A stretch of DNA of 64,000 nt from an uncultured delta proteobacterium (GCA_963814585.1 CAWFDF010000008.1:192001-256000), one strand, 5' to 3'; shown: positions 27,920-60,058, numbered from the stretch's first letter. Notes: generated by a model not told the origin, from the sequence alone. Program-made: numbers and translations.

Positions 27920-27990
27920 GCTCGAGCGGAAGACAGCCTCGGCGGTTCTGGTGTAGAAAGGCCACCGACGCGGTCCACGGGAGCAGCCAC

Positions 27991-28182: not shown

Positions 28183-28249
28183 GGCCGCGCCCATGGCAAG
28201 ATGCCTGCAGCGAGAGCCGGTCCTCTCGCTGCGGCAGGCGGCCTCGTCG
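28180..28249. mobile_element. Truncated copy of MITE-like family (one end only)
   Basis: TAGGGCCGCGCCCATGGCAAGATGCCTGCAGCGAGAGCCGGTCCTCTCGCTGCGGCAGGCGGCCTCGTCGG matches the left part of the 56675 copy; begins at the tatA TAG stop. Confidence 0.7.
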
Positions 28250-28297
28250 GGCTGCCTCGGTTGACTCCCGGCCCCACGCTCCATAGATCTGCACGCC

Positions 28298-29434: not shown

Positions 29435-29449
29435 GCGCCCTCCCCGCCC

Positions 29450-30160
29450 ATGCGCCGCTACCTGATCGTCGACGACAACCTCGAGTTCGCCGAGAACCTC
29501 GCCGAGATCCTCCGCGACCTGGGGGCCGAGGCGGACCTCGCCGGGAGCGGCGCCGAGGCGCTGGGCCTGGTGGAGCGGGGCCGCTACCACGCGCTGCTCA
29601 CCGACATGCGGATGCCGGGGATGGGCGGCGCCGAGGTGGTCCACGAGGTGCGGCACCTCGATCCCGGGCTGGCGGCCCTGGTGGTCACTGCCCACGTCGC
29701 CGACGACGCGCTGGAGGCGGCGCGGCGCGAGGGACTGCTGGCGGTCCTCGCCAAGCCGGTGCCGATCGGGCCGCTGCTCGAGCTGCTCGGCGCGGCCCGG
29801 CGCGACGGCCTGGTGGCGGTCATCGAGGACGACCAGCGGCTCTCCGACAACCTCTGCGAGGTCCTCAGGAGCCGCGGGTTCGCCGCCGTCACCGCCGCCT
29901 CGGTGCTGGAGACCCAGCGGCTCGGCCCGGTGCGGCCGTTCTGCGCGCTGGTCGACCTGCGCGTGCCCGGCGGCCCCGACGGCGAGGCCATGCGCCGGCT
30001 CGGGGAGCGGTACCCGGGCCTGCCCATGCTGATCATGACGGGCGTCCACGACGGGCCGGTCCCGGGCACGCCGGCCTTCTTCAAGAAGCCGTTCGACACC
30101 GCCGCGCTGCTGGCCGCCGTCGAGCGCCTCCACGCCTCGCAGCCAGGGGCACCGCCGTGA
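29450..30160 (+). CDS. Response regulator with two receiver domains
   Basis: IVDD..TDMRMPG..KP and IEDD..VDLRVPG..KP; no output domain. Confidence 0.87.
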   Translation: MRRYLIVDDNLEFAENLAEILRDLGAEADLAGSGAEALGLVERGRYHALLTDMRMPGMGGAEVVHEVRHLDPGLAALVVTAHVADDALEAARREGLLAVLAKPVPIGPLLELLGAARRDGLVAVIEDDQRLSDNLCEVLRSRGFAAVTAASVLETQRLGPVRPFCALVDLRVPGGPDGEAMRRLGERYPGLPMLIMTGVHDGPVPGTPAFFKKPFDTAALLAAVERLHASQPGAPP

Positions 30161-31290: not shown

Positions 31291-31299
31291 GCGGCCGGC

Positions 31300-32730
31300 T
31301 CACTCCTCGTCCTCGCCCTCGGGGCGCGGCACGAAGCGGCCCTCCTCGCGCTCCTTGTACTCCTTCTGCCGGTACTGGATCTTCCGGACGCTGATGCCGA
31401 GGATCTCGGCGGCCCGCGACGTCGAGCCGCCCACCATCTCCAGGGTGCGCACGATGGCCTCCCGCTCGATGTCGTAGAGCGTGGCGCCGGGGATGAGCGC
31501 GCCCGGGGAGCGATCGCTGCGCGGCCGCAGGCCGCGCAGCGTGGGCGGCAGGTCGTCGCCGTTCAGCTCGGAGCCCTTGCAGAGGACCACCGCCCGCTCC
31601 ACCACGTTCTCCAGCTCGCGGACGTTGCCGGGCCAGTCGTGGGAGAGCAGCGCGTTGAGCGTGCCGGGCGCCAGCGCCTTGATCTCCTTGCCGTAGGCCT
31701 TGGCGTACTTGGCGATGAAGTGCGTGACCAGCGAGGGGATGTCACCCTTTCGCTCCCGCAGCGGCGGCAAGGTCACGGCCACCACGTTGAGCCGGTAGAA
31801 GAGATCCTCGCGGAACCGGCCCGTCTTCACCAGCTCGCCGAGGTCGCGGTTGGTGGCGGCCACCAGCCGGACGTCCACCTTGAGCGTGCGGGTGCCGCCG
31901 ACCCGCTCGAACTCGCGCTGCTGCAGGACGCGCAGCAGCTTGACCTGCAGGCCCGGGGAGATCTCCCCGATCTCGTCGAGGAAGAGCGTCCCGCCGTCGG
32001 CCAGCTCGAAGCGCCCCTCCTTCAGGCCGATGGCGCCGGTGAAGGCCCCCTTCTCGTGGCCGAAGAGCTCCGACTCCAGCAGGGTCTCGGAGAGCGCGGC
32101 GCAGTTCACCTTGATGAAGGCCTTGTCGGCGCGCGGCGACTCCTCGTGGAGCGCCTGCGCCACCAGCTCCTTGCCCGTCCCCGACTCGCCGAGGATGAGC
32201 ACCGTGGCGCGCGTGGGCGCGGCCCGCTTCACCACGTCGAAGACCGCCTGCAGCTCGGGGGCCTCCCCGACGATGTTGTGGAAGCTGTACCGGTCGCGCA
32301 CCCGCTCCCGGAGGTTCTGGGCGTCGCGCTGCAGCTTGAGCTTCTCGAGCGCCTTGGCCAGGACCACCTGCACGGCGCTGAAGTCGAGCGGCTTGGTGAG
32401 GTAGTTCTCGGCGCCGGCCCGCATCGCCTCGACGGCGGCCTCGACCGAGGCGTACGCGGTCATCATCACGAAGACCGCGTCCGTCCCCTGCTCGCGCGCC
32501 CGCCTGAGCAGCGTGATGCCGTCGAGCCGGGGCATCCGGACGTCCGCCAGCACCACCGACGGCCCGAAGCCGGGGATCAGCGCCAGCGCCTCCTCCCCGT
32601 CGGCGGCCTCGAGGACCTCGTATCCTTCCTCCGCCAGCATGGTCCGGAGCGCGACGCGGGCGTTCTGCTCGTCGTCGACGACCAGGATCCAATCCTTGGA
32701 CACCCTCGACACCGTGCTGGGTGTGGTCAT
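31300..32730 (-). CDS. Sigma54-dependent response regulator (NtrC/AtoC family)
   Basis: [34 protein letters not shown], Fis-type HTH. Confidence 0.93.
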
Positions 32731-34023: not shown

Positions 34024-35370
34024 TCAGCCCGGCAGGGCGCGCCGGACCGTGCCGTCGACCGCGGTGTCGACCAGCGGGCCGGTCGCCAGGCGCGTGGCCG
34101 GGTCGAGGCGCCTCACCAGCGGCTTGTCCCAGCGCGCCCGGTCACGCGCCGGCACCGCCACCCGCCCCAGGCCTCCGTCGGCCAGCTCCACCAGCGTGCC
34201 GGGTGGATGGAGTCCCAGGGCGTTGACCAGCGCCTGCGCCAGCGCGGCGTGGTAGAGCCTCCCGCCGGCCTTGAGCATCGCCCCGAGGGCGTCGGCGCGG
34301 GTGACCTTGGCCCCGTAGAGCCGGATGACGTTGGCGTAGTCCTCCGCGAGTCGCAGCGCCGCTCCGCCGCCCGACGGGGGCCCCTGCGGATCGGCCAGGT
34401 CGCGGTGGTGCTCCAGCACCCCGCGCAGCCTGCGAAGCTTGGCCTCCGAGAAGCCGCGCTGGCGCAGCAGGAGCCGCGCCCCCTCGAGGGGATGGCGCGC
34501 CAGGGCCGCCGTCCCCTCCCCGACCGACGGCACCAGGTACCCGACGTCGTGGACCAGGCCGGCGATGCCGACGTCCTGGAGCAGCCCGGCGGGGAACCCG
34601 GCCGCCTTGCCGGCCAGCAGGGCCACCATGGCCACCTCGACGGCGTGGGCCGCGTGCGGCGGGCAGTCGGGGAAGCCGAGCCAGAAGGCGGGCGCCTCGA
34701 GGCCCGCGGCGAGCGCCTCGGCCACGGCTCGCCGGATGGGCAACGGGTTGAGCACCCGGCCGGCGGCGAGGTGATCCCAGCCGTCGCAGGTCAGGTCGAG
34801 CAGCAGCCGGAGGACCTGCTCCGGCGTCCGCGGCGGCGGCGCTTGCTCCGACCGGGCGGCCTGGAACCGGTAGATGCCCAGCAGCTCCACCGCGTCGAGC
34901 CCCTGGTCCAGCAGCCACTGGCCGAGCGTGCCACGCGGCCACTCCTGGGCGGGCGGGCTGGCCAGCCCCTTCACCAGGGTCCGGATCTGCGGCCCGGTGA
35001 GCGGCGAGTGGAACAGGAGCCCGCCGGTGTTGTGGCGCTTCAGCTCGGCCCCCAGGCCGGCCGCGCCCGGCCGGTCGTCGGTGCGGACGCGGATGTCGTT
35101 GAGGTAGACCTGGTCCTCGACCGTCACCAGGGTGACCGGCCCGAGCGCCTCCCCCAGCGCCGCCAGCACCCGCGCCAGCTCGGCCACCGGCGCGTCGAAG
35201 GCTTGGTTGTCCGGGCTGTGGATCCGGGTCAGCTTGAGGAGGCCGGCCACCAGCTGCACCAGGCTCTCGCCCCCCTCGCGGACCCTCTGCGCCAGCTCCC
35301 GGTCCTCTCCGGCGCGGGCGCGGCCGAGGGCACGGCCGAGGCTGGCCTGGGCCCGGGCGAGCTCATCCAT
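34024..35370 (-). CDS. HD-domain protein (HD-GYP-like, GYP motif degenerate)
   Basis: HAVEV, GLVHDVG, HPLEGA, EHH, and C-terminal LGLHPPGTLVELADG; no GYP. Confidence 0.78.
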   Translation of the reverse strand: MDELARAQASLGRALGRARAGEDRELAQRVREGGESLVQLVAGLLKLTRIHSPDNQAFDAPVAELARVLAALGEALGPVTLVTVEDQVYLNDIRVRTDDRPGAAGLGAELKRHNTGGLLFHSPLTGPQIRTLVKGLASPPAQEWPRGTLGQWLLDQGLDAVELLGIYRFQAARSEQAPPPRTPEQVLRLLLDLTCDGWDHLAAGRVLNPLPIRRAVAEALAAGLEAPAFWLGFPDCPPHAAHAVEVAMVALLAGKAAGFPAGLLQDVGIAGLVHDVGYLVPSVGEGTAALARHPLEGARLLLRQRGFSEAKLRRLRGVLEHHRDLADPQGPPSGGGAALRLAEDYANVIRLYGAKVTRADALGAMLKAGGRLYHAALAQALVNALGLHPPGTLVELADGGLGRVAVPARDRARWDKPLVRRLDPATRLATGPLVDTAVDGTVRRALPG

Positions 35371-37048
35371 GGCGGGCCCCCAGGTGGCGGCGGCGCGCCA
35401 GCATGGCGAGGCAGTGGCGCCGGAGGGCGTCGTCGTCGACCTCCTTGACCAGCGCCTCCAGCTGGGCCAGCGCCTCGGGCGCCGGGTGGGAGGCCAGCCC
35501 CGAGGCGCCGGCGGCGCGCAGGGCGTCGTCGTGCCCGGAGCCCGAGAACGCCTTGAGCAGGCCGCGGCGCGGCTTGAGCCACTCGGCGAAGACGGACGAG
35601 GCTCGCCCCGGATCGAGCCGGGCCATGGCCGAGCCGAAGGCATCGGCCTCGGCGAACGAGCACCCCTTGCGACCAGCCAGCGCGTCGTGGACGGACTGGA
35701 AGGCGGCGGCCTTGCCGCTGCGGGCCAGCGCGCGCGCCACGCCGATGCGGACCGGCTCCCGTGGCGACTGGAGGAGTCGCAGCAGCCGCTGCACCGGCAC
35801 CTCCCCCCCGGCCGCCTCGAGCGCCTGGAGCGCGGCCACCTGCAGGCCCTCGTCCGCGTGATCGAGCAGCGCCAGCGCCGCCGGCGTCGCGAAGGCGGGG
35901 GCCCGGGCGCCGATGGCGGTGACCAGCGCGCGCGCCACCCTGGCGTCGAGCGTGGCGAGCCGCTCGACGATGGCGCCGGCGTCGGCGGGAAGCCGGGCCT
36001 CGGCGACGAGGGCGAGGACGTGACGGCGCCCCGGGTCGACCTCGGTGGCCAGCAGATCGAGGGCGGCCTGCGCGGTGACCAGCGGCACCAGGCGCTGCGC
36101 CTCGGGAGGGAGCCTGGCGCTGCCGGCCGGCACCGCCGCCAGCACCGCGTCGAGCAGCCGGGGATCGCCCAGGGTCCGGAGCAGCTCGTCGCGCAGCGGA
36201 CCGGGAGGCATCCGCGCGGCCAGCTCCGCCAGCTCCGCCAGCGGCGCCAGCGCCGCGTCGGCGATGAAGGCGTCGCGCAGCTCGACCAGGAAGAGCTGCG
36301 CCTCCCGCACCGGGACCACGCCGCGCGCGGCCTCGGCGAGCAGGAGCCCGGCCAGGCGGAGGGCGCCGGCCCCCAGCGCCTCGGCCGCCTCGCCGGCGTG
36401 GAGCGAGGCCAGGGCCTCCGCCGGCACGTCGCGCCAGGCGATGGGACCGGGAGGCGGGAGGAGCGGGAACGGCGCGTCGAAGCCGGCCGGCGCGCGGCTC
36501 CCCGCCCCCCGGGACCGGCGGGTCCGCTCGGGCTCCGGGTTGTCCTCCTCCGGCGTGAACCCCTCGACGGCCTCGAAGCCGATCCGCTGGAACTCACCCT
36601 TGCGGAGCAGCGTGATGACGTCCTCCTCCTGCTGCCGGATGCCCACGTAGCGGACGGCGAGGATCTCGAGGAAGGCCAGCAGCTCCTCCCAGGGCACGCC
36701 GGATCGGAAGGTGATGCGGCGAACGCCATCCCGGAAGAGCCGGAAGGCCAGGGACCGCTCCCGGTCCTCCTCGCGATAGACGGCCTCTCCGTCGCGCAGC
36801 AGCTCGAACGGAAGGACCTCGAGCGTCAGGTCGGCGGCGGCCGTGGCCGCCTCGGCGCGGGCCTGGTAGTCGGAGAGGAACTGCCGGACCACGGCGTTGC
36901 CGGGCGCGTAGAGCGTGAAGGAGCGCGCGGCCTTGGAGAGCGCGGAGACGAACTGCGCCGCCACCGCGCCCGGACCGCTGGTGGCCAGCGGCGCGGCGGG
37001 CCCGGCCTCCCTCGGTGAGCCACCTCTCGGCGGCATGGGCAGCGCCAT
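35363..37048 (-). CDS. HEAT-repeat protein
   Basis: LY..GN N-terminal domain, LAFRLFRDGVRRITF..G...EEL, C-terminal HEAT-like repeats; overlaps the HD gene start. Confidence 0.72.
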   Translation of the reverse strand: MALPMPPRGGSPREAGPAAPLATSGPGAVAAQFVSALSKAARSFTLYAPGNAVVRQFLSDYQARAEAATAAADLTLEVLPFELLRDGEAVYREEDRERSLAFRLFRDGVRRITFRSGVPWEELLAFLEILAVRYVGIRQQEEDVITLLRKGEFQRIGFEAVEGFTPEEDNPEPERTRRSRGAGSRAPAGFDAPFPLLPPPGPIAWRDVPAEALASLHAGEAAEALGAGALRLAGLLLAEAARGVVPVREAQLFLVELRDAFIADAALAPLAELAELAARMPPGPLRDELLRTLGDPRLLDAVLAAVPAGSARLPPEAQRLVPLVTAQAALDLLATEVDPGRRHVLALVAEARLPADAGAIVERLATLDARVARALVTAIGARAPAFATPAALALLDHADEGLQVAALQALEAAGGEVPVQRLLRLLQSPREPVRIGVARALARSGKAAAFQSVHDALAGRKGCSFAEADAFGSAMARLDPGRASSVFAEWLKPRRGLLKAFSGSGHDDALRAAGASGLASHPAPEALAQLEALVKEVDDDALRRHCLAMLARRRHLGARHG

Positions 37049-37258: not shown

Positions 37259-38899
37259 ATGAAGTCCACCGAAACGCCTCCCGGCCCCTCGGCCGATCTC
37301 GGGTACGAGCTCCGCTGGCGCGATCGCCTCTCCTCCAAGCTCCTGCTCTTCACCACCATGGCCGGGCTGGTGATCGTGGCGGCGTTCTTCGTCGCCGAGC
37401 TCCGCTTCGAGCGGTTCGTGGTCCAGCAGGCTGCCGAGGAGTCGGACCTGGTGGCCCAGACCGCGGCCAGCGCCATCTACCGGGCCATGCTCCTCGACCG
37501 GCGCGAGGACGCCTACCGCATCCTCGAAGACATCGGGCGGCAGCCGGGCGTCGATCGGATCCGCCTCCTCGACCACGGCGGCCGCGTCGCCTTCTCGACC
37601 GACGCCACCGAGACCGGCCGGACGCTGGACCCTCGCGGCCCGCACTGCGTGGTCTGCCACGCCGCCGGGGCGGATCGGGCCCCGGGGCTCGAGGGGCGCC
37701 GGCGCGTCGAGGAGGTCGGGGGGCAGCGCGTGCTCCAGCTGGTCGCGCCCATGCCCAACCAGCCGGCCTGCGCCGCCGCCGGCTGCCACGTCCACCCCAC
37801 CGCGGCGAGGCTCCTCGGGCTGCTCGCCGTCGATCGCTCCCTGGCCGCGGCCGATGCCCGGCTGGCTGGCTTCCGCTGGAGCTCGCTGGTGGTCGCCGCC
37901 GTGGTCGCCGCCGCCCTGGGGCTGGCCTTCTGGTGGCTGACCCACCGCCGCCTGGTCCAGCCGGTGGCTGCCCTGGTGGCGGCCACCCGCCGCGTCGCCC
38001 ATCAGGACCTGGAGCAGCCTGCGGCGCCCGACTTCGGCGGGGAGCTCGGGCTGCTGGCGGCCTCCTTCGGCGAGATGGTCCGCTCCCTGCGGGCCACCCG
38101 CGCCGAGCTGGATGCGCTCAACCAGGACCTCGAGCGCCAGGTCGAGGACCGCACCCGGGCGCTGGTCGAGACCCGCGAGCAGCTGGCGCGGGGCGAGACG
38201 CTGGCCGCCCTGGGCCGGCTCTCCGCCGCCGTCGGACACCGGCTGGGCAGCCCGCTCTCCGGCATCCTCACCATCGCCCGGAACGGCGCCCGCTCGCTCG
38301 AGGCCGGCCCCCTTCCCGACCCCGAGCGCGCCCGGCTGGCCCACGATCTCCGGCTCGTCGAGCGGGAGGCCGATCGCGCCGGCGAGGTGGTGGTGCGGCT
38401 CCTCGACTTCTCGCGCGAGCGCCCCTTCTCGGCGCAGCTCCTCGGAGCCGACTCGGTGGTCGACGAGGCGCTGGAGCTGGCCACGTCCGAGGCGAGGCTG
38501 CAGGGCATCGCCGTCACCCGGCGCAGCACGCCGACCTCTCCGCTCCTGGCCGACCGCAGCCAGCTCCGGCAGGCCGTGCTCGACACGCTGCTCCGGGCCT
38601 TCGGCGCCATGCCGGACGGCGGGCAGCTCACCGTCGAGACCGGCCCGGCCGCGAGCGGCCGCGAGGTCGAGATCGCCGTCACCGACTCGGGCCCGATGCT
38701 CCCGGCCGGGGAGCTGGGCCGCGTCTTCGAGCCCGACTTCTCGGCCACGGCGGGCGCCGGCCTCGGGCTGGCGCAGGCCCACGCCATCGCCGTCCGCCAC
38801 GGCGGGCGGCTCGAGGTCACCAGCGAGCCGGGACGAGGCACCCGGATCGCCATCCGCCTGCCGGCACCACCTGCGGCCGACGAGGGCGCCGGGCGGTGA
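37259..38899 (+). CDS. Membrane sensor kinase-like protein with periplasmic c-haem motifs; degenerate kinase core
   Basis: TM-CVVCH-CAAAGCH-TM-HAMP; H-box VGHRLGSP, N-box QAVLDTLLRAFGAM lacking both Asn. Confidence 0.85.
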   Translation: MKSTETPPGPSADLGYELRWRDRLSSKLLLFTTMAGLVIVAAFFVAELRFERFVVQQAAEESDLVAQTAASAIYRAMLLDRREDAYRILEDIGRQPGVDRIRLLDHGGRVAFSTDATETGRTLDPRGPHCVVCHAAGADRAPGLEGRRRVEEVGGQRVLQLVAPMPNQPACAAAGCHVHPTAARLLGLLAVDRSLAAADARLAGFRWSSLVVAAVVAAALGLAFWWLTHRRLVQPVAALVAATRRVAHQDLEQPAAPDFGGELGLLAASFGEMVRSLRATRAELDALNQDLERQVEDRTRALVETREQLARGETLAALGRLSAAVGHRLGSPLSGILTIARNGARSLEAGPLPDPERARLAHDLRLVEREADRAGEVVVRLLDFSRERPFSAQLLGADSVVDEALELATSEARLQGIAVTRRSTPTSPLLADRSQLRQAVLDTLLRAFGAMPDGGQLTVETGPAASGREVEIAVTDSGPMLPAGELGRVFEPDFSATAGAGLGLAQAHAIAVRHGGRLEVTSEPGRGTRIAIRLPAPPAADEGAGR

Positions 38900-38906
38900 C
38901 TCCGCG

Positions 38907-39455
38907 ATGGACCCCATCTCCATCTGCTGGATCGGGGAGCACGAGGCGGTCCCGGCGGTGATCGAGCGCGTGCGCCACGAGCTGGAGCGCGCCTACGGCG
39001 TGCCGGCGGTCCTCTGGGACCCGGCCGACCGGCCGCGCGACACCCTCGACCCGAAGCGGCGCCAGCACGCCTCCGGCAAGCTGCTGGCCTGGCTGCTCCA
39101 GGCCGCTCCACCCGGCCGGAAGGTCCTGGGGCTCACCGACCAGGACCTGTTCATCCCCATCCTCACCTACGTGTTCGGCGAGGCCCAGCTCGGCGGCCGC
39201 GTGGCGGTGGCCTCCACCGCCCGGCTCTCCGAGGACCTCGACCGCCGGGGCGAGCGACGCTTCACCGAGCGGGTCGTCAAGGAGGCGGTCCACGAGGTGG
39301 GCCACGCCTACGGCCTGGTGCACTGCAACGTCCCTCGCTGCGTCATGAGCCGCGCCGCCGGCGTCCGCGACGTCGACGAGAAGTCCGTCGAGCTCTGTCC
39401 ACGCTGTCGCCGCCGGCTCTCCGAGCCGGGGAGGAGTCCTCATGGCCTCGAATGA
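38907..39455 (+). CDS. Archaemetzincin (peptidase M54) Zn protease
   Basis: DLFIPILTYVFGEA, KEAVHEVGHAYGLVHC...CVM...D.K...LCPRC. Confidence 0.9.
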   Translation: MDPISICWIGEHEAVPAVIERVRHELERAYGVPAVLWDPADRPRDTLDPKRRQHASGKLLAWLLQAAPPGRKVLGLTDQDLFIPILTYVFGEAQLGGRVAVASTARLSEDLDRRGERRFTERVVKEAVHEVGHAYGLVHCNVPRCVMSRAAGVRDVDEKSVELCPRCRRRLSEPGRSPHGLE

Positions 39456-40851
39456 GCGCGTCCGCATCCTGGTGGTCGACGACGAGGAGATCGTCCGGGA
39501 GTCGCTGGCCGGCTGGCTGGACAAGGACGGCTACGCGGTCGACCAGGCGGCCGACGGGCCCTCGGCGCTGGAGAAGCTGCGCGCCCGGCCCTACTCCATC
39601 CTCATCGCCGACCTGAAGATGCCGGGCATGGACGGCCTCACCGTCCAGGTCGAGGCCCGGAAGCTGCAGCCCGCCCTGGCGGTGGTGATCATGACCGCCT
39701 ACGCCACCGTCGACACCGCCGTGACGGCCATGAAGCAGGGCGCCTTCGACTACCTCGTGAAGCCGTTCGATCCCGAGGAGTTGACGATGATGATGCAGAA
39801 GATCGTCGCCCAGCAGGAGCTGCTGCGCGAGAACGCCGTGCTCCGCAAGGCGCTGAAGAAGGAGCACCGGCTCCACGATCTCGCCTCCAAGGCCCCGGCG
39901 ATGCAGGCGGTCTTCGACCTGGCCCGCAGCGCGGCCCGCTCCAGCTCCACCATCCTCGTCCTCGGCGAGTCCGGCTCGGGCAAGGAGGTCCTGGCCCGCG
40001 CCATCCATGCCGAGAGCCCGCGCGCCGAGGGCCCGTTCGTGGAGGTCTCGTGCGCCGCGCTCACCGAGACGCTGCTGGAGTCCGAGCTCTTCGGCCACGA
40101 GAAGGGGTCCTTCACCGGCGCCACCGCGCGACGCAAGGGCAAGTTCGAGGCCGCCCACAAGGGCACCCTCTTCCTCGACGAGGTCGGCGACATCGGCCCC
40201 AAGCTCCAGCTCGACCTGCTGCGGGTGCTGGAGGAGCGCCGCTTCCAGCGGATCGGCGGCAACGAGACGGTCGAGGTGGACGTCCGCATCGTCGCCGCGA
40301 CCAACAAGGACCTGCAGCGGGCCGTGGCGGCCGGGAGCTTCCGGGAGGACCTCTTCTACCGGCTCAACGTCATCCCCATCCGCCTGCCCCCGCTCCGGGA
40401 ACGGCGCGAGGACATCCCGCTGCTGGTCGACCACTTCATCGAGCGGCTCTCGGCCGAGCTGGGACGGCCCATCGAGGGGATCTCGGCCGAGGCCATGAAC
40501 GCGCTGATGATCCAGCCCTGGCCAGGGAACGTGCGCGAGCTGCGCAACGTCCTCGAACGGGGCGCGGTCGTTGCGCGCGGGCCGCTCATCGAGCTGGAGG
40601 ACCTCGGCCTCACCACTCGAGCGGGCCCCGCCCCGGCAGGGCCACCGCCCGCAGCCGTGACCTCGCCCGATGAGTCGCTCGACGAGGTGGAGCGGCGGCA
40701 CATCGCCAGCGTGCTGGCCCACACCGGGTTCAACGTCAGCCAGTCGGCCCGGGTCCTCGGCGTCGACCGGGTCACGCTCTACAACAAGATGCGAAAGTAT
40801 GGGCTGCGGCGGGAGGGCGAGGAGGAGCCTGGCCCGCCGAGCGCCCGTTGA
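39442..40851 (+). CDS. Sigma54-dependent response regulator (NtrC/AtoC family)
   Basis: REC with [37 protein letters not shown], Fis HTH. Confidence 0.93.
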   Translation: MASNERVRILVVDDEEIVRESLAGWLDKDGYAVDQAADGPSALEKLRARPYSILIADLKMPGMDGLTVQVEARKLQPALAVVIMTAYATVDTAVTAMKQGAFDYLVKPFDPEELTMMMQKIVAQQELLRENAVLRKALKKEHRLHDLASKAPAMQAVFDLARSAARSSSTILVLGESGSGKEVLARAIHAESPRAEGPFVEVSCAALTETLLESELFGHEKGSFTGATARRKGKFEAAHKGTLFLDEVGDIGPKLQLDLLRVLEERRFQRIGGNETVEVDVRIVAATNKDLQRAVAAGSFREDLFYRLNVIPIRLPPLRERREDIPLLVDHFIERLSAELGRPIEGISAEAMNALMIQPWPGNVRELRNVLERGAVVARGPLIELEDLGLTTRAGPAPAGPPPAAVTSPDESLDEVERRHIASVLAHTGFNVSQSARVLGVDRVTLYNKMRKYGLRREGEEEPGPPSAR

Positions 40852-40915
40852 GCACCGACGAAGTTCTCCACACCTTCCCCATCCGACTGTAGAGCGCCGT
40901 TGAGTTCTTCCACGC
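40843..40915 (+). promoter_or_regulatory. Enhancer (UAS) copy 1, 73 bp
   Basis: 63/73 identical to 43592-43664; two internal units 42 bp apart. Confidence 0.8.
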
Positions 40916-41008
40916 CCGCTGGCGCGCGGCGGGCGTGCGCCGGCGCGCGGCCAGCGACATCTCCCAGTGAATCCGGTCGATTCCGCGGCGGCGCCGCGCC
41001 GGGGCCGC

Positions 41009-41025
41009 TTGGCCCCATCCTTGCT
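41009..41025 (+). promoter_or_regulatory. Sigma54 (-24/-12) promoter
   Basis: TTGGCCCCATCCTTGCT, GG-N10-GC. Confidence 0.82.
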
Positions 41026-41048
41026 GAACGTCTCCCCCGGAGGCGCGA

Positions 41049-41258
41049 ATGACTTGCCCGTATCGGAAAGAGGTCTCGATGGTCTTCTGCCGGGCCTACC
41101 CGGTGAAGAAGCTGGTCCCGATCGATCGAGTCACCACCGCGAGCACCTGCGAAGGCGAGGGCTTCCGGACCTGCGCGGCCTACGCCGAGGCGGCGGGACG
41201 CAGCTGGCGAGGGAACGTGGACGAAGACGACACCCTGGAGGGGGCGGGCCATTCCTGA
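41049..41258 (+). CDS. Small four-cysteine protein
   Basis: GGAGG RBS; MTCPY..C..C..C; first gene after the sigma54 promoter. Confidence 0.7.
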   Translation: MTCPYRKEVSMVFCRAYPVKKLVPIDRVTTASTCEGEGFRTCAAYAEAAGRSWRGNVDEDDTLEGAGHS

Positions 41259-41279
41259 ATGGACCCGAGGGAGACAGCC

Positions 41280-42158
41280 ATGAGGATGACGAGGCGAGCG
41301 TTCTTCAAGGTGGCGGGCGTCACGGCCGGCACCGGTCTTGCCGTGGCGGCCACGGCGCGGGCGGCGGACCCGGCCCCGGCCGACGAGTCGCTCCCCGGCG
41401 TGCTGGTCGACACCACCCGCTGCGCCGGCTGCCGGGCCTGCGAGGCGGCCTGCGCCGAGACCAACAAGAACCCGGCCCCCGCCGAGAGCGCCGACATGTC
41501 GGTGCGCCGCGACACCAGCCAGCACGTCTTCACGGTGATCAACCGGGCCGAGGGCCCGGGTGGCGTGGAGCGCTTCGCGAAGAAGCAGTGCATGCACTGC
41601 CTCGCCCCGGCCTGCGCCTCGGCCTGCCCGGTCCGGGCCATGGACAAGCTCCCCACCGGCCCGGTGGTCTACGACGCGTCCAAGTGCATGGGCTGCCGCT
41701 ACTGCATGGTGGCCTGCGCCTTCGACATCCCCAAGTACGAGTACGAGCGGGCCGCGCCGCGCGTGCGCAAGTGCACCTTCTGCGCCGAGCGCCAGGCCGA
41801 GGGCCTCGAGCCGGCCTGCACCTCGGTCTGCCCCACCGGCGCGCTCACCTTCGGCAAGCGGGCCGCGCTGCTCGAGGAGGCCAAGCGGCGCATCTACGCC
41901 GAGGGCTCCAGGTACGTGCGCCGCGTCTACGGCGAGCGCGAGGCCGGCGGCACCAGCTGGCTCTACATCTCGGACATCCCCTTCGAGCAGCTGGCGCTCA
42001 ACACCGGGATGCCGGAGCGCCCGTACACCGAGCTGGTGGCCGGCGCGCTGGGCGCTCCCCCCTTCGTCATGACGCTCTGGCCGCCGCTGCTGATGGGGCT
42101 CTACACGTTCTCGAAGCGCCGTGAAGAGGTCGAGGAGAAGGAGGAGCACCATGGCTAA
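41280..42158 (+). CDS. Tat-exported 4x[4Fe-4S] protein, HybA/HmcB-like
   Basis: TRRAFFK Tat motif; CAGCRACEAAC, CMHCLAPACASACP, CMGCRYCMVAC, KCTFC..PAC..VCP; E.GGTSWLY; C-terminal TM. Confidence 0.9.
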   Translation: MRMTRRAFFKVAGVTAGTGLAVAATARAADPAPADESLPGVLVDTTRCAGCRACEAACAETNKNPAPAESADMSVRRDTSQHVFTVINRAEGPGGVERFAKKQCMHCLAPACASACPVRAMDKLPTGPVVYDASKCMGCRYCMVACAFDIPKYEYERAAPRVRKCTFCAERQAEGLEPACTSVCPTGALTFGKRAALLEEAKRRIYAEGSRYVRRVYGEREAGGTSWLYISDIPFEQLALNTGMPERPYTELVAGALGAPPFVMTLWPPLLMGLYTFSKRREEVEEKEEHHG

Positions 42159-43374
42159 CGCCACCGCCGCTTCGCTGGCCGGCAGCTCGTCGTTCTTCCG
42201 CGAGAAGATCTTGCTGGGCATGGGCTGGGGCGAGTACCTCCGCTCCCTGCTCACTCCGGGCAACGCCGTGGCCGCCGTCATCCTGGTGGTCGGCCTCCCG
42301 CTGCTCGCCTACCGGTTCGCGGCCGGCCTGGGCGCCACCACGGCCCTGTCCCAGGCCTACCCCTGGGGCCTCTGGATCGGCTTCGACATGATGACCGGCA
42401 TCGTCCTCGCCGCCGGGGGCTTCACCGTCGGGGCCACGGTCCAGCTGCTCGGCCTGAAGGACTACCACGCCATCGAGCGGTCGGCGATCCTCACCGCCTT
42501 CCTCGGCTACCTGATGGCGATCTTCGGCCTGCTGGCCGACCTGGGCCGGCCCTGGAACATCGTCCAGGCCATCTTCAACTACGGCACCGCCTCGGCCCTC
42601 TTCGAGGTCGCCTGGTGCGTGATGTGCTACTCGACCGTCCTCTTCCTGGAGTTCACCCTGCCCTTCTTCGAGTGGCTCGGCTGGCGGCGCATCCACGCCG
42701 TCCTCAAGAAGGCGCTCATCGCCCTCACCGTGATGTCGGTGGTCTTCTCCACCATGCACCAGTCGGCGCTCGGGTCGCTCTTCCTGCTGGCGCCCACCAA
42801 GCTCCACCCGCTCTGGTACTCGCCCTTCATCTTCATCTTCTTCTTCATCTCGGCGATCCTGGCCGGGATCGCCATGGCCATCATCGAGAGCTCCATCTCG
42901 CACCGGGTCTTCGCCCGCCAGCTGGGTGGGCAGCACGTCGACGTGGACAAGCTGGTGGTCGGCCTCGGCAAGGCCGGCGCGGTGGTGTCCTTCGCCTACT
43001 TCTTCATCAAGCTGCAGGGCGTCATCGACGGACACGCCTGGGGTCACCTGGCCACCGGGTGGGGCGCGCTCTTCCTCGTCGAGACCGTCGGCCTGGTGCT
43101 GGTCCCCTCCTTCCTCTTCGCCTACGGTGCCCGCAACGGCCAGGCCGGGCCCGTCAAGCTGGCGGCGGTGCTGACGGTGTGCGGCATCATCCTCAACCGG
43201 CTCAACGTCGCGGTCATCGCCTTCAACTGGACCAACCCCGTCCGGTACGCGCCGAGCTGGATGGAGGTCTGGGTCTCGATCACGCTGGTCACGCTCGGCG
43301 TCGTCGCCTTCCGGTGGATCGTCAACCGCATGCCGATCCTCCGTGAGGACCCGGCCTTCCCGCAGGAACACTGA
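42151..43374 (+). CDS. NrfD-family integral membrane protein, HybB/HmcC-like
   Basis: YPWGLWIGFD, LAAGGF, AILTAFLGY, DLGRPW, STMHQSALG, KLHPLWYS, RLNV, Y.PSW.E. Confidence 0.9.
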   Translation: MANATAASLAGSSSFFREKILLGMGWGEYLRSLLTPGNAVAAVILVVGLPLLAYRFAAGLGATTALSQAYPWGLWIGFDMMTGIVLAAGGFTVGATVQLLGLKDYHAIERSAILTAFLGYLMAIFGLLADLGRPWNIVQAIFNYGTASALFEVAWCVMCYSTVLFLEFTLPFFEWLGWRRIHAVLKKALIALTVMSVVFSTMHQSALGSLFLLAPTKLHPLWYSPFIFIFFFISAILAGIAMAIIESSISHRVFARQLGGQHVDVDKLVVGLGKAGAVVSFAYFFIKLQGVIDGHAWGHLATGWGALFLVETVGLVLVPSFLFAYGARNGQAGPVKLAAVLTVCGIILNRLNVAVIAFNWTNPVRYAPSWMEVWVSITLVTLGVVAFRWIVNRMPILREDPAFPQEH

Positions 43375-43394
43375 GCGGGCCATCCAGGGGGGCT

Positions 43395-43422
43395 GCGGCG
43401 CCGCGCTCATGCGCGGCGCCGC
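43395..43422 (+). terminator. Perfect 12-bp hairpin after the HybB-like gene
   Basis: GCGGCGCCGCGC-TCAT-GCGCGGCGCCGC followed by GTCATTTC (weak U tract). Confidence 0.45.
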
Positions 43423-43591
43423 GTCATTTCCGGGCCGCCCGGGACCCTTCCGCCTCCTCACCCCCTCGGACCAGGCCCGGGACCGGCCCGCACCGGACTC
43501 GACGCCAGCCAGGCGGCGCGCGCCCCCGCGGCCGGCCGGGTCCAGCCCGGCGAGGAGCTGCCTGGGCGCCGTGCGCCACCGTGGACCTGGT

Positions 43592-43664
43592 GCCCGTAGA
43601 GCGCCGTCGAAGTTCTCCACACATCCCCTCCACGACTGTAGAGCGCCGTTGAGTTCCTCCACGC
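43592..43664 (+). promoter_or_regulatory. Enhancer (UAS) copy 2, 73 bp
   Basis: GTAGAGCGCCGTCGAAGTTCTCCAC and GTAGAGCGCCGTTGAGTTCCTCCAC units 42 bp apart. Confidence 0.8.
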
Positions 43665-43757
43665 TTCCCTGCGGGAGCCCGTCCCCACCGGACGCGGTGG
43701 CACCTTCACCTACCTGGAAGTACGGGCCATTTGGCGTCGCCGCCGGGCCGAGCCGAC

Positions 43758-43774
43758 TTGGCCGCATCCTTGCT
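43758..43774 (+). promoter_or_regulatory. Sigma54 (-24/-12) promoter
   Basis: TTGGCCGCATCCTTGCT, 16/17 identical to the 41009 promoter. Confidence 0.82.
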
Positions 43775-43822
43775 ACTGCTCTCCATGGAGTCGCGAAGTA
43801 CCCGCCCGCAACGGAGACGGCA

Positions 43823-44563
43823 ATGACCCACGAATTCCTCAGCATCTACCCGGCCAAGCTCATGGAGTACGGCCTGGCGATCACCTACCTGCTGCTCTTC
43901 ATCCCCATGTGGCGCTACGTGCAGGGTGGCCGCCGCCAGGCCGCGGAGGCCGTGGTGCGCGGGCGCCGCGACGCCGAGCGCTGGCCTGCCGTCGCGGTGG
44001 CGGCCCCGTGGCCGAGCCTCGGCTGGTTCCAGGTCCCGGCAGGCGTGGCCCTCCACCCGGGTCACACCTGGGCCCGGCTCGACGCCGACGGCACCGTGGC
44101 GGTGGGCGTGGATGACTTCGCCCAGCGGCTGGTGGCGCCGACCCGCATCGAGCTGCCGCGCGCCGGCGCCGTGGTGGCGCAGGGTGAGTCGGCCGTGGCG
44201 CTGGGCGACGGCCACCGCACCGTGCCGCTGGTCTCCCCGGTCAACGGGACGGTGGTGGCGGTGAACCGCGCCGTGGCCGAGACCCCGGACCTGCTCCAGG
44301 ACCCCTACGGCGCCGGCTGGCTCTTCAAGGTGAAGGCCCCGCGGCTCGAGGCCGACCAGCGGCAGCTGCTCCACGCCCAGTCGGCGCGCCACTTCCTGGA
44401 TGGCGAGGCGGAGGCCCTGGCGATGCGGGCCAGCCCGGAGGTCGGACAGGTGCTGCAGGACGGCGGCGTGCCGGTCCACGGGCTGGCCCGGGCGCTGGCC
44501 GGGGACGCCGGCTGGGACGCGCTGGCCCGCGAGTTCTTCCACACCGAGAAGGGGACGCCATGA
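43823..44563 (+). CDS. Membrane-anchored glycine cleavage H-like protein lacking the lipoyl-Lys (His at that position)
   Basis: N-terminal TM; HPGHTW, VGVDDFAQ, SPVNG.V..VN, DPYGAGW; LGDGHR in place of AESVKA; C-terminal DGG extension. Confidence 0.85.
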   Translation: MTHEFLSIYPAKLMEYGLAITYLLLFIPMWRYVQGGRRQAAEAVVRGRRDAERWPAVAVAAPWPSLGWFQVPAGVALHPGHTWARLDADGTVAVGVDDFAQRLVAPTRIELPRAGAVVAQGESAVALGDGHRTVPLVSPVNGTVVAVNRAVAETPDLLQDPYGAGWLFKVKAPRLEADQRQLLHAQSARHFLDGEAEALAMRASPEVGQVLQDGGVPVHGLARALAGDAGWDALAREFFHTEKGTP

Positions 44564-44907
44564 CCACCACGCTCCGTCGGGCCCTGCGGATGACCAGCGC
44601 CGTCGTGCTGCTGGGCGCCGGCCTGGCCCTGGCCTACGAGCTGCCCCGCCTTCCCGGGCCCGTCGCCCTGAAGCGAGGCGCCGACAGCCCCGGCCTGGTG
44701 ACCTTCCGGCACGAGAGCCACGTCGACTCGGCCAAGCCCACCTGCCTGGCCTGCCACCCGGAGCGGTTCAGCCTGCTCGGCCGCACCGCCACCGAGAAGC
44801 GGCCGGACATCACCCACGATCGCATGACCGGGGGGCGCGACTGCGGCGCCTGCCACGGGAAGGAGGCCTTCGGCCTGGACGACTGCACCAACTGTCACGC
44901 GGAGTGA
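44560..44907 (+). CDS. Periplasmic trihaem c7-type cytochrome
   Basis: Signal peptide, VTFRHESH, CLACH, CGACH, CTNCH. Confidence 0.9.
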   Translation: MTTTLRRALRMTSAVVLLGAGLALAYELPRLPGPVALKRGADSPGLVTFRHESHVDSAKPTCLACHPERFSLLGRTATEKRPDITHDRMTGGRDCGACHGKEAFGLDDCTNCHAE

Positions 44908-44958
44908 GCGTAGCGTCACGGATGACCGCATCATGCTGAAAGGAAGAAGGAGACTGTC

Positions 44959-45660
44959 ATGACCACCATCTACGGAGCCATCGAACTGGTTGCGGTGTTC
45001 CTCGTCGGGCTGGCCGCGCGCGCCGGCATCGTCCTCGCCCTCGTCGTCTTGCTGGCCATCCCGGTCCTGCTCATCGCCGCCATGATGCGCGGCGCCGGCG
45101 AGCTGAAGAAGAGGTCGCTCGGCCTCCGCGAGGTGGCTGGGCTCATCTTCCGGCCCGACGCCTGGTACAGCGCCGGCCACACCTGGATGACCCGGCTCGC
45201 CGGTGGCTCGCTCCGCATCGGCCTCGATGCCCTCGCCCTCCGGCTCATGCCCACCGTCAACGGCGTCGAGCTGAAGCCGGCCGGGACCCGCGTCACCAGG
45301 GGCGCGACCATCGCCACCATCCACGCCGGCGCCCGCTCGCTGGCGATCCGCTCCCCGGTCGACGGCGTGGTGGTGGCCGCCAACGCCGCCGCGCTCCGCG
45401 ACCCGTCACTGGTCAAGAGCGACGGCTATGGCCGCGGCTGGCTGGTCACCGTGGCTCCCGCCAACATGGCCTTCGCCGACCTGCCCAGCGGCCGCTCCGC
45501 CGAGAAGTTCCTCCGCGAGGAGGCGGCGCGCTGGAACCACTTCGTCGAGGGTCGGCTCGGCTACGCGGCCGCCGACGGCGGCGAGCTGACGGCGCCGGCG
45601 CCCTGGCTGCTCGGCGACGAGGGCTGGCGCGAGCTGGCCGACGCCTTCGTCGACCGCTGA
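44959..45660 (+). CDS. Second membrane-anchored glycine cleavage H-like protein lacking the lipoyl-Lys (Ala at that position)
   Basis: N-terminal TM; YSAGHTW, RIGLD, SPVDG.V...N, DGYGRGWL; IHAGAR in place of AESVKA; DGG extension. Confidence 0.85.
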   Translation: MTTIYGAIELVAVFLVGLAARAGIVLALVVLLAIPVLLIAAMMRGAGELKKRSLGLREVAGLIFRPDAWYSAGHTWMTRLAGGSLRIGLDALALRLMPTVNGVELKPAGTRVTRGATIATIHAGARSLAIRSPVDGVVVAANAAALRDPSLVKSDGYGRGWLVTVAPANMAFADLPSGRSAEKFLREEAARWNHFVEGRLGYAAADGGELTAPAPWLLGDEGWRELADAFVDR

Positions 45661-45662
45661 GC

Positions 45663-46106
45663 TCAGCGGCCGGGTCCCGCCTCGCGGCGGTCCAGGCGCG
45701 GCTCCCGGCGGCCCGGTCCAGGGTCGCCGGCGGGCCGCGCCGGCGTTTCCGGGTGCCGGCGGGCCAGCCCCCAAGCCGATGGTGACCCGTGCCGCGCCCC
45801 AGGCAAGATGACGTGACGAGAGAGCCGAGACCGAAGCGAGGCTGGCGCCCGAGGAGGGAGCAGCGGAAGCGTAGCAGCGCTACGCTGAGCAGCGGACCGA
45901 CGAGGCCGCCTGCCGCAGCGAGAGGATCGGCTCTCGCAGTAGGCATCTTGCCTGGGGCGCGGCACGAGCCCCGGGAGCGGCAGCGCCGCCACGAAGAGGA
46001 GGCCGAGCACCGGCGCGGCGACGAGGAGCAGCGGCGTCGGGACGAGGCGCCGGGGCCGCCGGGGTGGCGAGGCCGGCCGGGCGGCTCCTCGAGGGCCCGG
46101 CCTCAC
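45663..46106 (-). CDS. Small membrane protein ORF carrying an in-frame MITE insertion
   Basis: VPTPLLLVAAPVLGLLFVAALP hydrophobic segment; GTG overlaps the kinase TGA; frame stays open across the 177-bp repeat. Confidence 0.4.
   Translation of the reverse strand: MRPGPRGAARPASPPRRPRRLVPTPLLLVAAPVLGLLFVAALPLPGLVPRPRQDAYCESRSSRCGRRPRRSAAQRSAATLPLLPPRAPASLRSRLSRHVILPGARHGSPSAWGLARRHPETPARPAGDPGPGRREPRLDRREAGPGR
45789..45965. mobile_element. Full-length (177 bp) MITE-like element
   Basis: Perfect 22-bp TIR GTGCCGCGCCCCAGGCAAGATG; interior nearly identical (inverted) to 56675-56855. Confidence 0.88.
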
Positions 46107-47755
46107 TCGGCGACCAGCTCGCCACCACCCGTCCCCGGCTCGACGGCCGGGAGCCGGATGACGAAGCGCGCCCCGTGGCCCGGTGCGCGCTCCACGTCGA
46201 TGCGCCCACCGTGCCGTGTCACGATGCCGTAGACCACGGAGAGGCCGAGGCCGGTGCCCTTCTCCTTGGTGGTGAAGAACGGGTCGAAGATCTTGCGGAG
46301 GTTCTCGGGTGAGATGCCCGGCCCGGTGTCCTCGACGGCGATCTCGACGGTCCGGCCCCCGTCGGCGACCCGGGTCTCCAGCAGCAGCGTGCCGCCCTCC
46401 CCCATGGCCTCCATGGCGTTGAGGGCGAGGTTGACCACGGCCTGCCGCAGCTCGCCGAAGTCGGCCAGGACCGGCGGAAGCGGCTGGAGCCTGCGGTCGA
46501 GCCGGAGGCCGGCGATGCTGAGCTTGTGGCCGACGAGCTGGATCGACTCCTCGATGGCGGCGTTGGCGTCGACCGGCTCGAGCTTGAGCGGCCGCTCGCG
46601 GGCGAAGTCGAGCAGGTTGCGGACGATGGCCGAGCAGCGCCCGGCCTCCCGCTCCACCAGCGACAGGTTCCGGGTGAGCGTGGCGCGGCTGGCCGGGTCG
46701 GGGACGGCGGTCTCGAGCTGGCGCGTGACCAGCTTGGCGAAGGTGAGGATGCCGGCCAGGGGGTTGTTGATCTCGTGGGCGATCGACGCCGAGAGCTGGC
46801 CGAGCGAGGAGAGCTTCTCGGTCTGGACCAGCGCCGCCTGGGCCCTGCGCAGGTCGGCGGTCCGATCCTCGACCTTCTGCTCCAGCTCGACGTTGAGCGA
46901 CCTCAGGTCACCCTCGACGCGGCGCAGCGAATGGGTCATCTCGTTGAACGACCTGGCCAGGACCCCCAGCTCGCCGCGGTCGTCGACCTGGATCTCCTGG
47001 TCGAGCTGATCACGGGCGATCCGGCGGGTGCCCTCGAGGATGGCGGAGACCGGCTGGACCACCCTGCGGCGCGCGAAGGTGACCAGGGTCCCGCCGAGCA
47101 GCGTCACGCCGAGCACGGCCGCGGCCAGCCCGAACACCCGGGCCATGGACTGCCGGCGATCGGCCTCCTCGAGCGAGACCAGCACCTCCTGGATGCCCAG
47201 CACCTGGTCGCCGCGCGCATGGTGGTGGCAGGTCGAGGAGGAGCAGCGGGCCTCGTTGTGGATGGGGGTGATGACGTGGAGGGCGCGGTGCCCTTCCATC
47301 TCCACGACCCGGCTGGCCCGGTCGACGCTGAGCCGGGCGAGCGGCTGGGGGCCCTGGTGGCAGGGGCGGCACGACTCCTCGGTGCGATCGAGGATCAGCC
47401 CCTCCTCGCCGGAGACCGTGGAGAAGGTGATGGTGCCGTCCTTGTTGAAGACGCGGACCAGGTCGATGCCGGGCTGGCGCCCGATGGCCCGCATGATCTC
47501 GTAGGCGTCGGACCGGCGGTCCTCCAGCATGGCCCGCCGCGTGGCGCTGGAGATGGTCTCGCCGAAGAGGACCGCCCCGGAGAGGGCCTGCTCCATGAGC
47601 GCCTGGCGCATGGTCCGCTCGAAGGCGCCGTAGGCGATGAGCGAGCCGACGAAGAGGATGGCGGTCAGCGAGAGGAGCTGCGTGGAGAGCCGGTGGCGCC
47701 ACGGGATCCTCGCCGTGGGGTCCTGCTGCGGACCGGAGGTGGGTCCCCGCCTCAT
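46103..47755 (-). CDS. Membrane sensor histidine kinase with periplasmic c-haem motifs (intact kinase)
   Basis: TM-CRPCH-CSSSTCH-TM-HAMP; AHEINNPL, QAVVNLALNA, DTGPGI, FDPFFTTK, GTGLGL. Confidence 0.9.
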   Translation of the reverse strand: MRRGPTSGPQQDPTARIPWRHRLSTQLLSLTAILFVGSLIAYGAFERTMRQALMEQALSGAVLFGETISSATRRAMLEDRRSDAYEIMRAIGRQPGIDLVRVFNKDGTITFSTVSGEEGLILDRTEESCRPCHQGPQPLARLSVDRASRVVEMEGHRALHVITPIHNEARCSSSTCHHHARGDQVLGIQEVLVSLEEADRRQSMARVFGLAAAVLGVTLLGGTLVTFARRRVVQPVSAILEGTRRIARDQLDQEIQVDDRGELGVLARSFNEMTHSLRRVEGDLRSLNVELEQKVEDRTADLRRAQAALVQTEKLSSLGQLSASIAHEINNPLAGILTFAKLVTRQLETAVPDPASRATLTRNLSLVEREAGRCSAIVRNLLDFARERPLKLEPVDANAAIEESIQLVGHKLSIAGLRLDRRLQPLPPVLADFGELRQAVVNLALNAMEAMGEGGTLLLETRVADGGRTVEIAVEDTGPGISPENLRKIFDPFFTTKEKGTGLGLSVVYGIVTRHGGRIDVERAPGHGARFVIRLPAVEPGTGGGELVAE

Positions 47756-60050: not shown

Positions 60051-60058
60051 GGCGGCTC

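Follow-up and report, generated by a model that had tools for sequence, protein, structure and literature searches.

Positions 37,259 to 47,755 of a 64,000-nt stretch of DNA (the window) from an uncultured delta proteobacterium (GCA_963814585.1, CAWFDF010000008.1:192001-256000) carry an island of ten genes that brings together two haem-motif histidine kinases (HK1 and HK2), a sigma-54 activator, an archaemetzincin, a membrane redox module and two proteins with the fold of the glycine cleavage H protein (GcvH1 and GcvH2). All ten open reading frames (ORFs) called in a first-pass annotation, made from the sequence alone, were found in place by ORF listing and translation, and domain search assigned the families HAMP-HisKA-HATPase (kinases HK1 and HK2), M54, Fer4, NrfD, GCV_H (twice) and cytochrome c7. 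Loci of relatives are given L-numbers and contigs of the window's own genome C-numbers.

On the forward strand, HK1 (37259..38899), a membrane sensor with CxxCH and Cx4CH motifs and a pseudokinase-like catalytic part, is followed by a cytoplasmic archaemetzincin of family M54 (38907..39455; NF033823, 159.6 bits, cut-off 145), with its HExxHxxGxxH motif and Cys4 site intact, and by an NtrC-type activator of receiver, AAA and helix-turn-helix domains, identified by family search (39442..40851). The putative promoter P1 (40847..41024), with enhancer dyads at 40847 and 40889 and a consensus-like -24/-12 site at 41010-41024, precedes a Cys4 mini-protein (41049..41258), a Tat-exported, tail-anchored 4x[4Fe-4S] protein of HmcB/HybA type identified by family hits and translation (41259..42158) and an NrfD membrane subunit of HmcC/HybB type with ten hydrophobic segments, also from family hits (42151..43374). 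A second putative promoter on the same strand, P2 (43596..43773), by its sequence a recent copy of P1 with dyads at 43596 and 43638 and a -24/-12 site at 43759-43773, precedes GcvH1 (43823..44563), a trihaem c7-type cytochrome with a signal peptide (44560..44907) and GcvH2 (44959..45660). HK2 (46103..47755, reverse strand) is convergent, retains intact catalytic motifs and is 41% identical to HK1. As first reported, no hydrogenase, molybdoenzyme or gcvP/T/L gene was seen in the window, on the ORF listing without a family scan of all ORFs.

The Fe-S protein and the NrfD subunit had been described as HybAB/HmcBC-like; family scores and helix homology indicate an HmcBC-type pair with an HmcD helix rather than an orphan HybAB. 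The best NCBIfam hits were HmcB (324 bits, cut-off 420) and HmcC (442 bits, cut-off 550), both above HybA/HybB, and no linked small and large hydrogenase subunits, as in Hydrogenase-2 (HybOABC), were found. The membrane helix of GcvH1 (residues 1-35, 43823..43927, forward strand) was matched at 25.9 bits by a profile built from four HmcD-type proteins that stand alone, compared to 9.6 bits for the best of 1048 membrane-helix decoys; the reverse profile gave 33-46 bits against 12.5, and the hhalign probability was 98.7%. The NCBIfam HmcD model did not match the window's own GcvH1 helix; in relatives it yielded 27-31 bits for the fusions and 40-44 bits for free proteins (cut-off 34), and the free 48-residue proteins of L102 and L103 passed at 43.8 and 40.4 bits. 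The homology of the GcvH1 helix to HmcD indicates that the redox core is HmcB-HmcC-HmcD with the c7 cytochrome, which carries three CxxCH motifs and a c7-type domain of the GSU1996 kind (TIGR04257, 59.1 bits, cut-off 40; PDB 3OV0, E 6e-21). GcvH1 is reduced to the helix alone in two lineages, with its position between hmcC and c7 kept, indicating that the helix is a unit of its own and the H-fold an add-on. The helix is most likely a subunit of the membrane complex. The anchor of GcvH2 was also compared and gave no match to HmcD.

HmcA (16 haems), the NarI-like HmcE and the HdrD-like HmcF are absent from the island and present in L105 and L106, which are true hmcE-F-A-D-B-C operons with a free HmcD; no relative of solved structure was found by sequence for the HmcC-type subunit. 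Taken alone, the redox core represents a variant on the Hmc/Nhc theme. With HmcB as the periplasmic Fe-S protein, HmcC as the NrfD-type quinone subunit and the HmcD-type helix of GcvH1, the core would exchange electrons between menaquinone and periplasmic cytochromes (c7 and, in most relatives, a nonahaem/cytochrome-b pair too) and would need no catalytic subunit of its own; the direction of electron flow is one that we infer. RNA contigs of relatives (mostly less than 95% alike) cover the redox and H-fold genes in two runs of one study, and these were kept out of the evidence because contigs give no level, strand or operon.

The circuit had been described as self-contained. The description applies to this genus-level arrangement only, because genes for a nonahaem cytochrome and a cytochrome b follow in 40 of the 50 family loci whose flank was long enough. 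In the window's genome the pair is not at the island and is located on contig C14 (G000:C14:186400-192200, reverse strand), in a block encoding the nonahaem cytochrome, a cytochrome b561, an M56/BlaR1-like peptidase, a 190-residue protein, a one-haem HisKA_3 kinase and a LuxR-type regulator. This block (compare L021 and L026), a second protease-containing signalling unit, lies directly behind the cassette in most relatives and is displaced here; no strict sigma-54 site was found upstream of it. In L102-L104, two divergent HmcBC-type operons stand back to back, the one with a free HmcD and a 13-haem cytochrome, the other with a Tat-less Fe-S protein and two H-folds.

The model of GcvH1, with a predicted local distance difference test (pLDDT) score of 88.7, showed an H-protein fold, with a root-mean-square deviation of 1.6-1.8 Å over about 126 residues from the Escherichia coli H protein. 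The proteins had been described as lipoyl-less, and this was borne out: reading of the translations against the canonical motif placed His in GcvH1 and Ala in GcvH2 at the position of the lipoyl-lysine, and across 172 aligned H-folds this column was variable, with Lys in seven and never in an ESVK context. Automatic annotation as glycine cleavage H protein, together with the fold, would suggest lipoyl carriers of glycine cleavage, or a pair that is the missing arm of a hydrogenase encoded elsewhere. Such an origin is hardly credible, as the lipoyl lysine is lacking. A gcvT-gcvH-gcvP run is present elsewhere in the genome (C8:351238-354108), and C12 encodes a hydrogenase equipped with its own HybA/HybB, so the island is not a stray part of either.

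What distinguishes the H-fold family is a 55-residue C-terminal extension with a nearly invariant DGG, in a tail of the form G-x-x-x-(Q/A)-D-G-G. The motif occupies residues 205-218 of GcvH1 (44435..44476, forward strand), with Asp213-Gly-Gly, and contains ADGG in the tail of GcvH2 (45556-45582), which consists of a membrane anchor, a lipoyl-less H-fold and this tail. DGG was present in 158 of 160 other H-fold ORFs, some of the loci overlapping. Nine small membrane proteins inside cassettes consist of a helix and the tail only; these proteins of 60-110 residues (L102-L104, L157, L158, L161, L163, L170 and L184) have the tail LG(L/F)T(M/L)ADGG as their sole conserved part. In relatives, H-folds also sit behind receiver, cytochrome, binding-protein, ferredoxin and Cys-rich domains. 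Examples are L159:5036-6730, L185:2028-3752, P0170, P0237, P0139, P0186, L214:9210-10514 and P0191, in which the partner is a periplasmic binding protein, cytochromes c, a receiver or a ferredoxin, or three H-fold copies precede an FAD/Fe-S oxidoreductase. Where GcvH1 or GcvH2 has moved away from hmcBC, the sigma-54 site and the tail were retained in all three cases examined. Orphan H-fold genes elsewhere in family genomes (L022, L023, L025, L027, L036, L195 and L201-L204) mostly have a sigma-54 site of their own, and L195 holds two near-identical copies.

The Cys4 mini-protein has no Pfam family and only unnamed matches in the Atlas; C3, C14, C34 and C42 were invariant in 47 of 47 sequences, and its model (pLDDT 58) was too poor for a structure search. 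In L134 one copy of the same domain, and in L184 two copies, are joined to a soluble H-fold in a single protein, with E values of 4e-19 and 8e-12. A homology between the mini-protein and the other Cys-rich H-fold domain was considered and rejected (hhalign 0.4%).

A duplicated enhancer and promoter had been claimed, and 183 nt at 72% identity were found (40843-41025 against 43592-43774), with a local alignment score of 120, whereas none of 500 random genome windows scored above 43. Of the 39 enhancer-like dyads in the genome, only the four in the P1 and P2 regions had a sigma-54 site downstream, and no further copies of the enhancer were found elsewhere in the genome. P2 was present in the window and in one of ten close relatives checked (L037), the other nine having a gap of 0-17 nt between hybB and gcvH1. 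The duplication stands, but P2, and with it the third transcription unit, is a local duplication, as is the pseudokinase HK1.

Both kinases carry CxxCH and Cx4CH between two membrane helices, and the two motifs, from which haem binding is predicted, were kept in 57 of 57 aligned kinases. When compared with c-haem sensor domains of the GSU0582/GSU0935 type, which are periplasmic and PAS-like with a c-haem motif, the sensor part gave weak matches to 3B47/3B42 (E 0.23-0.32) and PF21563 (E 0.003), and the window's kinases have two conserved haem motifs. The description of HK1 as a pseudokinase held for its catalytic motifs and did not extend to the phospho-acceptor: the His and the G2 box are kept, and the E-x-x-N part of the H box (the adjacent Glu/Asn), the N box, the G1 box and the F box are altered, all of which are intact in HK2. 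Altered motifs were observed in 6 of the 57 kinases. These six belong to the clade of the window, and each has a convergent partner kinase whose H and N boxes are retained. In the sister loci L043 and L048 both kinases are intact. The ratio of nonsynonymous to synonymous substitution rates in the catalytic part of HK1 was 0.23-0.38 against five relatives, and this purifying selection on the altered part indicates a kept pseudokinase rather than a decaying gene.

From domain content and promoter sites, HK2 would read periplasmic redox state or a haem ligand and phosphorylate the sigma-54 activator, which would then drive P1 and P2, with HK1 as a retained, probably inactive paralogue tuning HK2 or the activator. 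A haem-sensor/sigma-54 circuit driving a cytochrome-to-quinone conduit, much as first proposed, is thus the best reading. The reverse assignment makes HmcBCD-c7 an input arm that passes quinol electrons to the kinase haems, the island being a sensor of the quinone pool. In its favour, a search of the genome brought up no further promoter carrying this enhancer. Against it, the only targets found are the redox genes themselves, which leaves a costly sensor with no other output; the extension of 40 of the 50 family loci into the nonahaem/cytochrome-b pair and the retention of the redox genes with no kinase or activator nearby in L081 and L083 also speak against it, and we regard it as highly improbable.

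The cassette was conserved across Anaeromyxobacteraceae and in other lineages, so that the genes do co-occur in other genomes; the closest named homologues were from Anaeromyxobacter, the named loci coming from an HybB query and hence biased to this family. Among 65 family-type loci, the 53 with sufficient upstream flank had HybA in 53, the activator in 48, a kinase in 47, the protease in 44 and the mini-protein in 44, and the 50 with sufficient downstream flank had c7 in 48, GcvH1 in 43, the nonahaem cytochrome and cytochrome b in 40 and GcvH2 in 30; counts were made by BLAST on ORFs, in which frameshifted assemblies and small genes can be missed. When metagenome loci were found through the protease, 40 of the 80 fetched were at least 6 kb long (G+C 0.37-0.72), and of these 37 had the activator, 34 a kinase, 26 an H-fold, 20 HybA and 17 HybB.

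The H-folds had been presented together with a quinone module. They track the protease and the two-component pair more closely than that module, and several loci have them with neither haem sensor nor HybAB. In L212, L214, L217 and L152, an H-fold, protease, kinase and activator occur with no hybA/hybB homologue in the fetched stretch, and the sensors there are of PAS or Cache type instead of haem. This co-occurrence, the varied H-fold fusions and the sigma-54 sites on moved genes indicate that the constant unit is kinase, activator, protease and H-fold, of which the haem sensor is the commonest input and HmcBCD-c7 the commonest output.

The same loci bear on a structural explanation, in which an Hmc/Nhc-type conduit is run by a conventional two-component system. 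The H-folds would then belong to the membrane complex, as accessory or assembly subunits on its cytoplasmic side; the protease would only mature or trim them, and transcription would receive no feedback. GcvH1 does start with the HmcD helix directly after hmcC, and the relatives include true hmc operons in which HmcD is free (L105 and L106). Against it, the H-fold, protease, kinase and activator go together without hybA/hybB in the four loci above, H-folds are fused to receiver, ferredoxin and binding-protein domains, and the redox core persists without H-folds. We consider this explanation distinctly unlikely.

The association of H-fold and protease was followed at the level of whole genomes in a phylum sample of 301, the protease being counted from 147 bits, which left out a gyrB-linked paralogue. 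Both were present in 40 genomes, the H-fold only in 2, the protease only in 4 and neither in 255; in one of the two H-fold-only genomes, a protease match of lower score lies next to the H-folds (L213). H-folds were matched strongly in 32 of 39 family genomes and in none of the 115 of the largest other family, and within the family the sets of genomes with protease and with H-fold were identical (33 genomes). In a comparison of 19 genomes, all seven with a helix-only GcvH1 were without a full GcvH1 and without the cassette protease genome-wide, whereas six of the seven without an H-fold in the locus had the protease and a full GcvH1 elsewhere, the seventh being a 2.5-Mb draft. Six of the helix-only genomes (L032 included) keep GcvH2, with a kinase or the mini-protein; DGG was lost in all six and kept in 32 of 32 other GcvH2. 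In this protease-less lineage, identity fell from 0.92 to 0.33 in the motif and only from 0.68 to 0.57 in the core.

In the archaemetzincin, H129, E130, H133, H139 and the four Cys were invariant in 47 of 47 sequences, and HExxHxxGxxH, the Met-turn and the Cys4 site were all present (PDB matches, E 3e-24 to 6e-16). The catalytic Glu was found in 121 of 121 sequences, and from these intact residues proteolytic activity is predicted. A second archaemetzincin paralogue, 33-38% identical and mostly beside gyrB (L196, L197, L199, L200 and L205), has HAAGH in place of HExxH in some genomes, where it is probably non-proteolytic; these paralogues were excluded as the cassette protease by score.

A complex of GcvH1 and the archaemetzincin was predicted with a score of 0.67, compared to 0.13 for the best of three controls. 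Of 157 solved pairs 116 attain the mark used for this score, as do 2 of 215 mismatched ones; the mark is rough here (own alignments, zinc riding along). Runs agreed in at least 89% of contacts, and partner pLDDT was at least 88. The modelled interface, almost entirely the tail of GcvH1, joins GcvH1 199-225 to protease 83-95, 126, 129-130, 133, 138-139 and 149-152, with GcvH1 210-217 antiparallel to protease 94-85 and touching the zinc-site residues 129-139 and 149-152, which would place the tail motif in the active-site cleft of the protease. By standard metzincin geometry, Gln212 would be P1 and Asp213 P1'. In an alignment with AfAmzA, the contacted positions of the protease fall on the segments that PMC3427221 names as edge strand, bulge-edge and S1' wall. 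Sequences of four solved archaemetzincins were found, all listed as single molecules, so that recall of this pair by the model is unlikely, although metzincin-peptide complexes do exist.

The H-folds had been proposed as modulators with no partner named; the evidence here points to the archaemetzincin as that partner. On the complex model and the co-loss data, the cytoplasmic C-terminal tail G-x-x-x-(Q/A)-D-G-G of the H-folds, which would themselves be products of the activator, is probably the specific ligand of the archaemetzincin. The protease would then most likely cut before the Asp, which we put at about even odds. That the H-folds are feedback modulators of the kinase/activator pair, with the cut changing their state or lifetime, is a tentative proposal standing somewhat short of even. 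The H-fold would serve as a reusable output domain behind sensing parts, among them the HmcD helix, the Cys4 domain, a receiver, a ferredoxin, a binding protein and a cytochrome. We give the overall two-layer explanation, a redox output under protease/H-fold control, a probability of about 0.5. Its widest form would be a new type of bacterial signalling module, widespread in anaerobes, in which a kinase and sigma-54 activator are controlled by lipoyl-less H-folds with interchangeable sensors (the HmcD helix being docked on the quinone complex) and the H-folds are switched by a dedicated archaemetzincin cutting at G-x-x-x-(Q/A)|D-G-G; we consider this form rather less likely than not.

Several observations weigh against the two-layer explanation. 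The tail loss is confined to one lineage with a shared two-residue deletion and is therefore one event, and the second helix-only lineage lost the whole regulatory part. In L051, L062 and L093, all draft genomes, DGG is retained while a search for the cassette protease came up empty. Nine loci outside the family hold 18 H-folds, of which 12 have DGG, 4 DGA and 2 no motif, despite an adjacent protease gene. H-folds are dispensable for the redox core, which is also found in their absence. An S1'-wall Arg suited to an acidic P1' is present in 56 of 58 family sequences but in 29 of 63 distant ones, and in PMC3427221 basic or hydrophobic substrates are said to fit the groove of AfAmzA, an enzyme that was inactive in standard assays. 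A complex model would place substrates and uncut inhibitory loops alike.

An alternative is binding without cutting, in which the tail is an inhibitory or tethering loop through which the H-folds keep the archaemetzincin membrane-bound; once released, the protease would act on another target such as the activator or kinase, or serve as a non-proteolytic co-regulator of the activator, as in CarG-CarD. The same complex and co-loss data fit this, as do the tail-only membrane proteins, read as decoys; the protease gene is beside the activator in 37 of the 40 metagenome loci of at least 6 kb and beside an H-fold in 26, and CarG is a non-proteolytic archaemetzincin regulator (PMC3427221, accessible part). 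It is disfavoured by the catalytic Glu kept in 121 of 121 sequences, whereas CarG has Gln, and by the substrate-like register of the modelled tail, in which P1 and P1' were assigned from standard metzincin geometry; we consider it unlikely.

If the widest form is correct, the H-folds would supply archaemetzincins, which occur in archaea, bacteria and humans, with their first class of natural substrates. The cut would leave GcvH2 with an alanine-ending C-terminus, comparable to ClpXP degrons, which are known to end in alanines, and the tail-only membrane proteins would set a threshold as competing substrates. Many proteins now annotated as glycine cleavage H protein would be reassigned (952 of 8000 candidates at E <=1e-10, true GcvH included), the role of HmcD could be traced to that of a docking helix, and a regulated quinone-to-cytochrome route would be indicated in Anaeromyxobacter, a genus with cultured members from soil and paddies that reduce metals. 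The archaemetzincin target is testable, since there is a candidate site of 10 residues, its register is predicted and one lineage has lost it naturally.

Around these genes, a miniature inverted-repeat transposable element of 177 nt with 23-nt terminal inverted repeats, absent from the first-pass annotation and regarded as a passenger, lies at 45789..45965. The genome has 25 full-length copies including this one, many 100% identical, indicating recent mobility, and it adjoins a remnant of a small conserved gene (45966-46043, reverse strand). Directly upstream of HK1, a HEAT-repeat and HD-domain protein pair (34024-37048, reverse strand) is also present in L035. At 27248-32730, the ORF text suggests a further sigma-54 activator, a Crp-like regulator, proteins with tandem receivers and a kinase that looks globin-coupled. 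Another redox operon, in which no catalytic subunit was seen either (about 57990-60523, reverse strand), encodes a tetrahaem cytochrome, a TtrB/DsrO-like Fe-S protein and a probable membrane subunit.

No published description of the cluster was found, as the first-pass annotation had supposed, although mention by locus tag in proteomic supplementary tables is possible. No paper found held two of the terms "glycine cleavage system H", "HybB" and "archaemetzincin"; the locus is absent from the accessible discussion in PMC2330069, and the accessible part of PMC4681839 describes no natural archaemetzincin substrate or cluster. The protease/H-fold control module is what is new here: it has no described counterpart that we found in the literature, and it gives the archaemetzincin family a specific candidate target. 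Natural substrates of archaemetzincins were stated as unknown in 2012 (PMC3427221, accessible part).

Among known systems, the Hmc complex (HmcABCDEF) and the related Nhc complex of sulfate reducers share with the window the HmcB/HmcC-type best hits, an HmcD-homologous helix and a periplasmic multihaem partner. The window differs in lacking HmcA, HmcE and HmcF, in its trihaem c7, in the fusion of HmcD to an H-fold, in scores below the cut-offs, and in having its own haem kinase, activator and protease. HmcC has been grouped with HybB and QrcD, with quinone reduction suggested, its function uncertain and the direction of electron flow open (PMC6303296, in the part accessible). CbcL of Geobacter sulfurreducens, with nine c haems and a di-haem b domain, passes electrons to a trihaem c7 (PMC9129911, in the portion available). 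CbcL with PpcA is resembled by the nonahaem cytochrome and b561-type cytochrome b of the relatives, often fused elsewhere; in these the parts are split into two genes, the likeness is one of architecture only, and the pair lies outside the window.

The protease shares the full HExxHxxGxxH-Cys4 signature with AmzA (2X7M, 3ZVS/4A3W/4AXQ, 3LMC), AMZ-tk and CarG, and Phe136 of AfAmzA is Arg in the window's family. CarG of Myxococcus xanthus is likewise the partner of a regulator, but has Gln where the window protease keeps Glu; the CarG model NF033824 gave 91.7 bits against a cut-off of 250, and the Glu-to-Gln change in HExxH was not found. GcvH, GcvH-L and LbpA have the H-protein fold of the window proteins, which differ from GcvH in having no lipoyl lysine, HxGHxW for HEW, a membrane anchor, the 55-residue DGG extension and scores below the GcvH cut-offs. 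RseA/DegS/RseP and BlaR1/BlaI are systems with regulated proteolysis of signalling modulators. The likeness is one of analogy only: in them, as in the window, a transcription circuit includes a protease of its own and a protein that is anchored in the membrane and has a cytoplasmic domain. They differ from it in their folds, the window having a soluble metzincin and a two-component/sigma-54 output.

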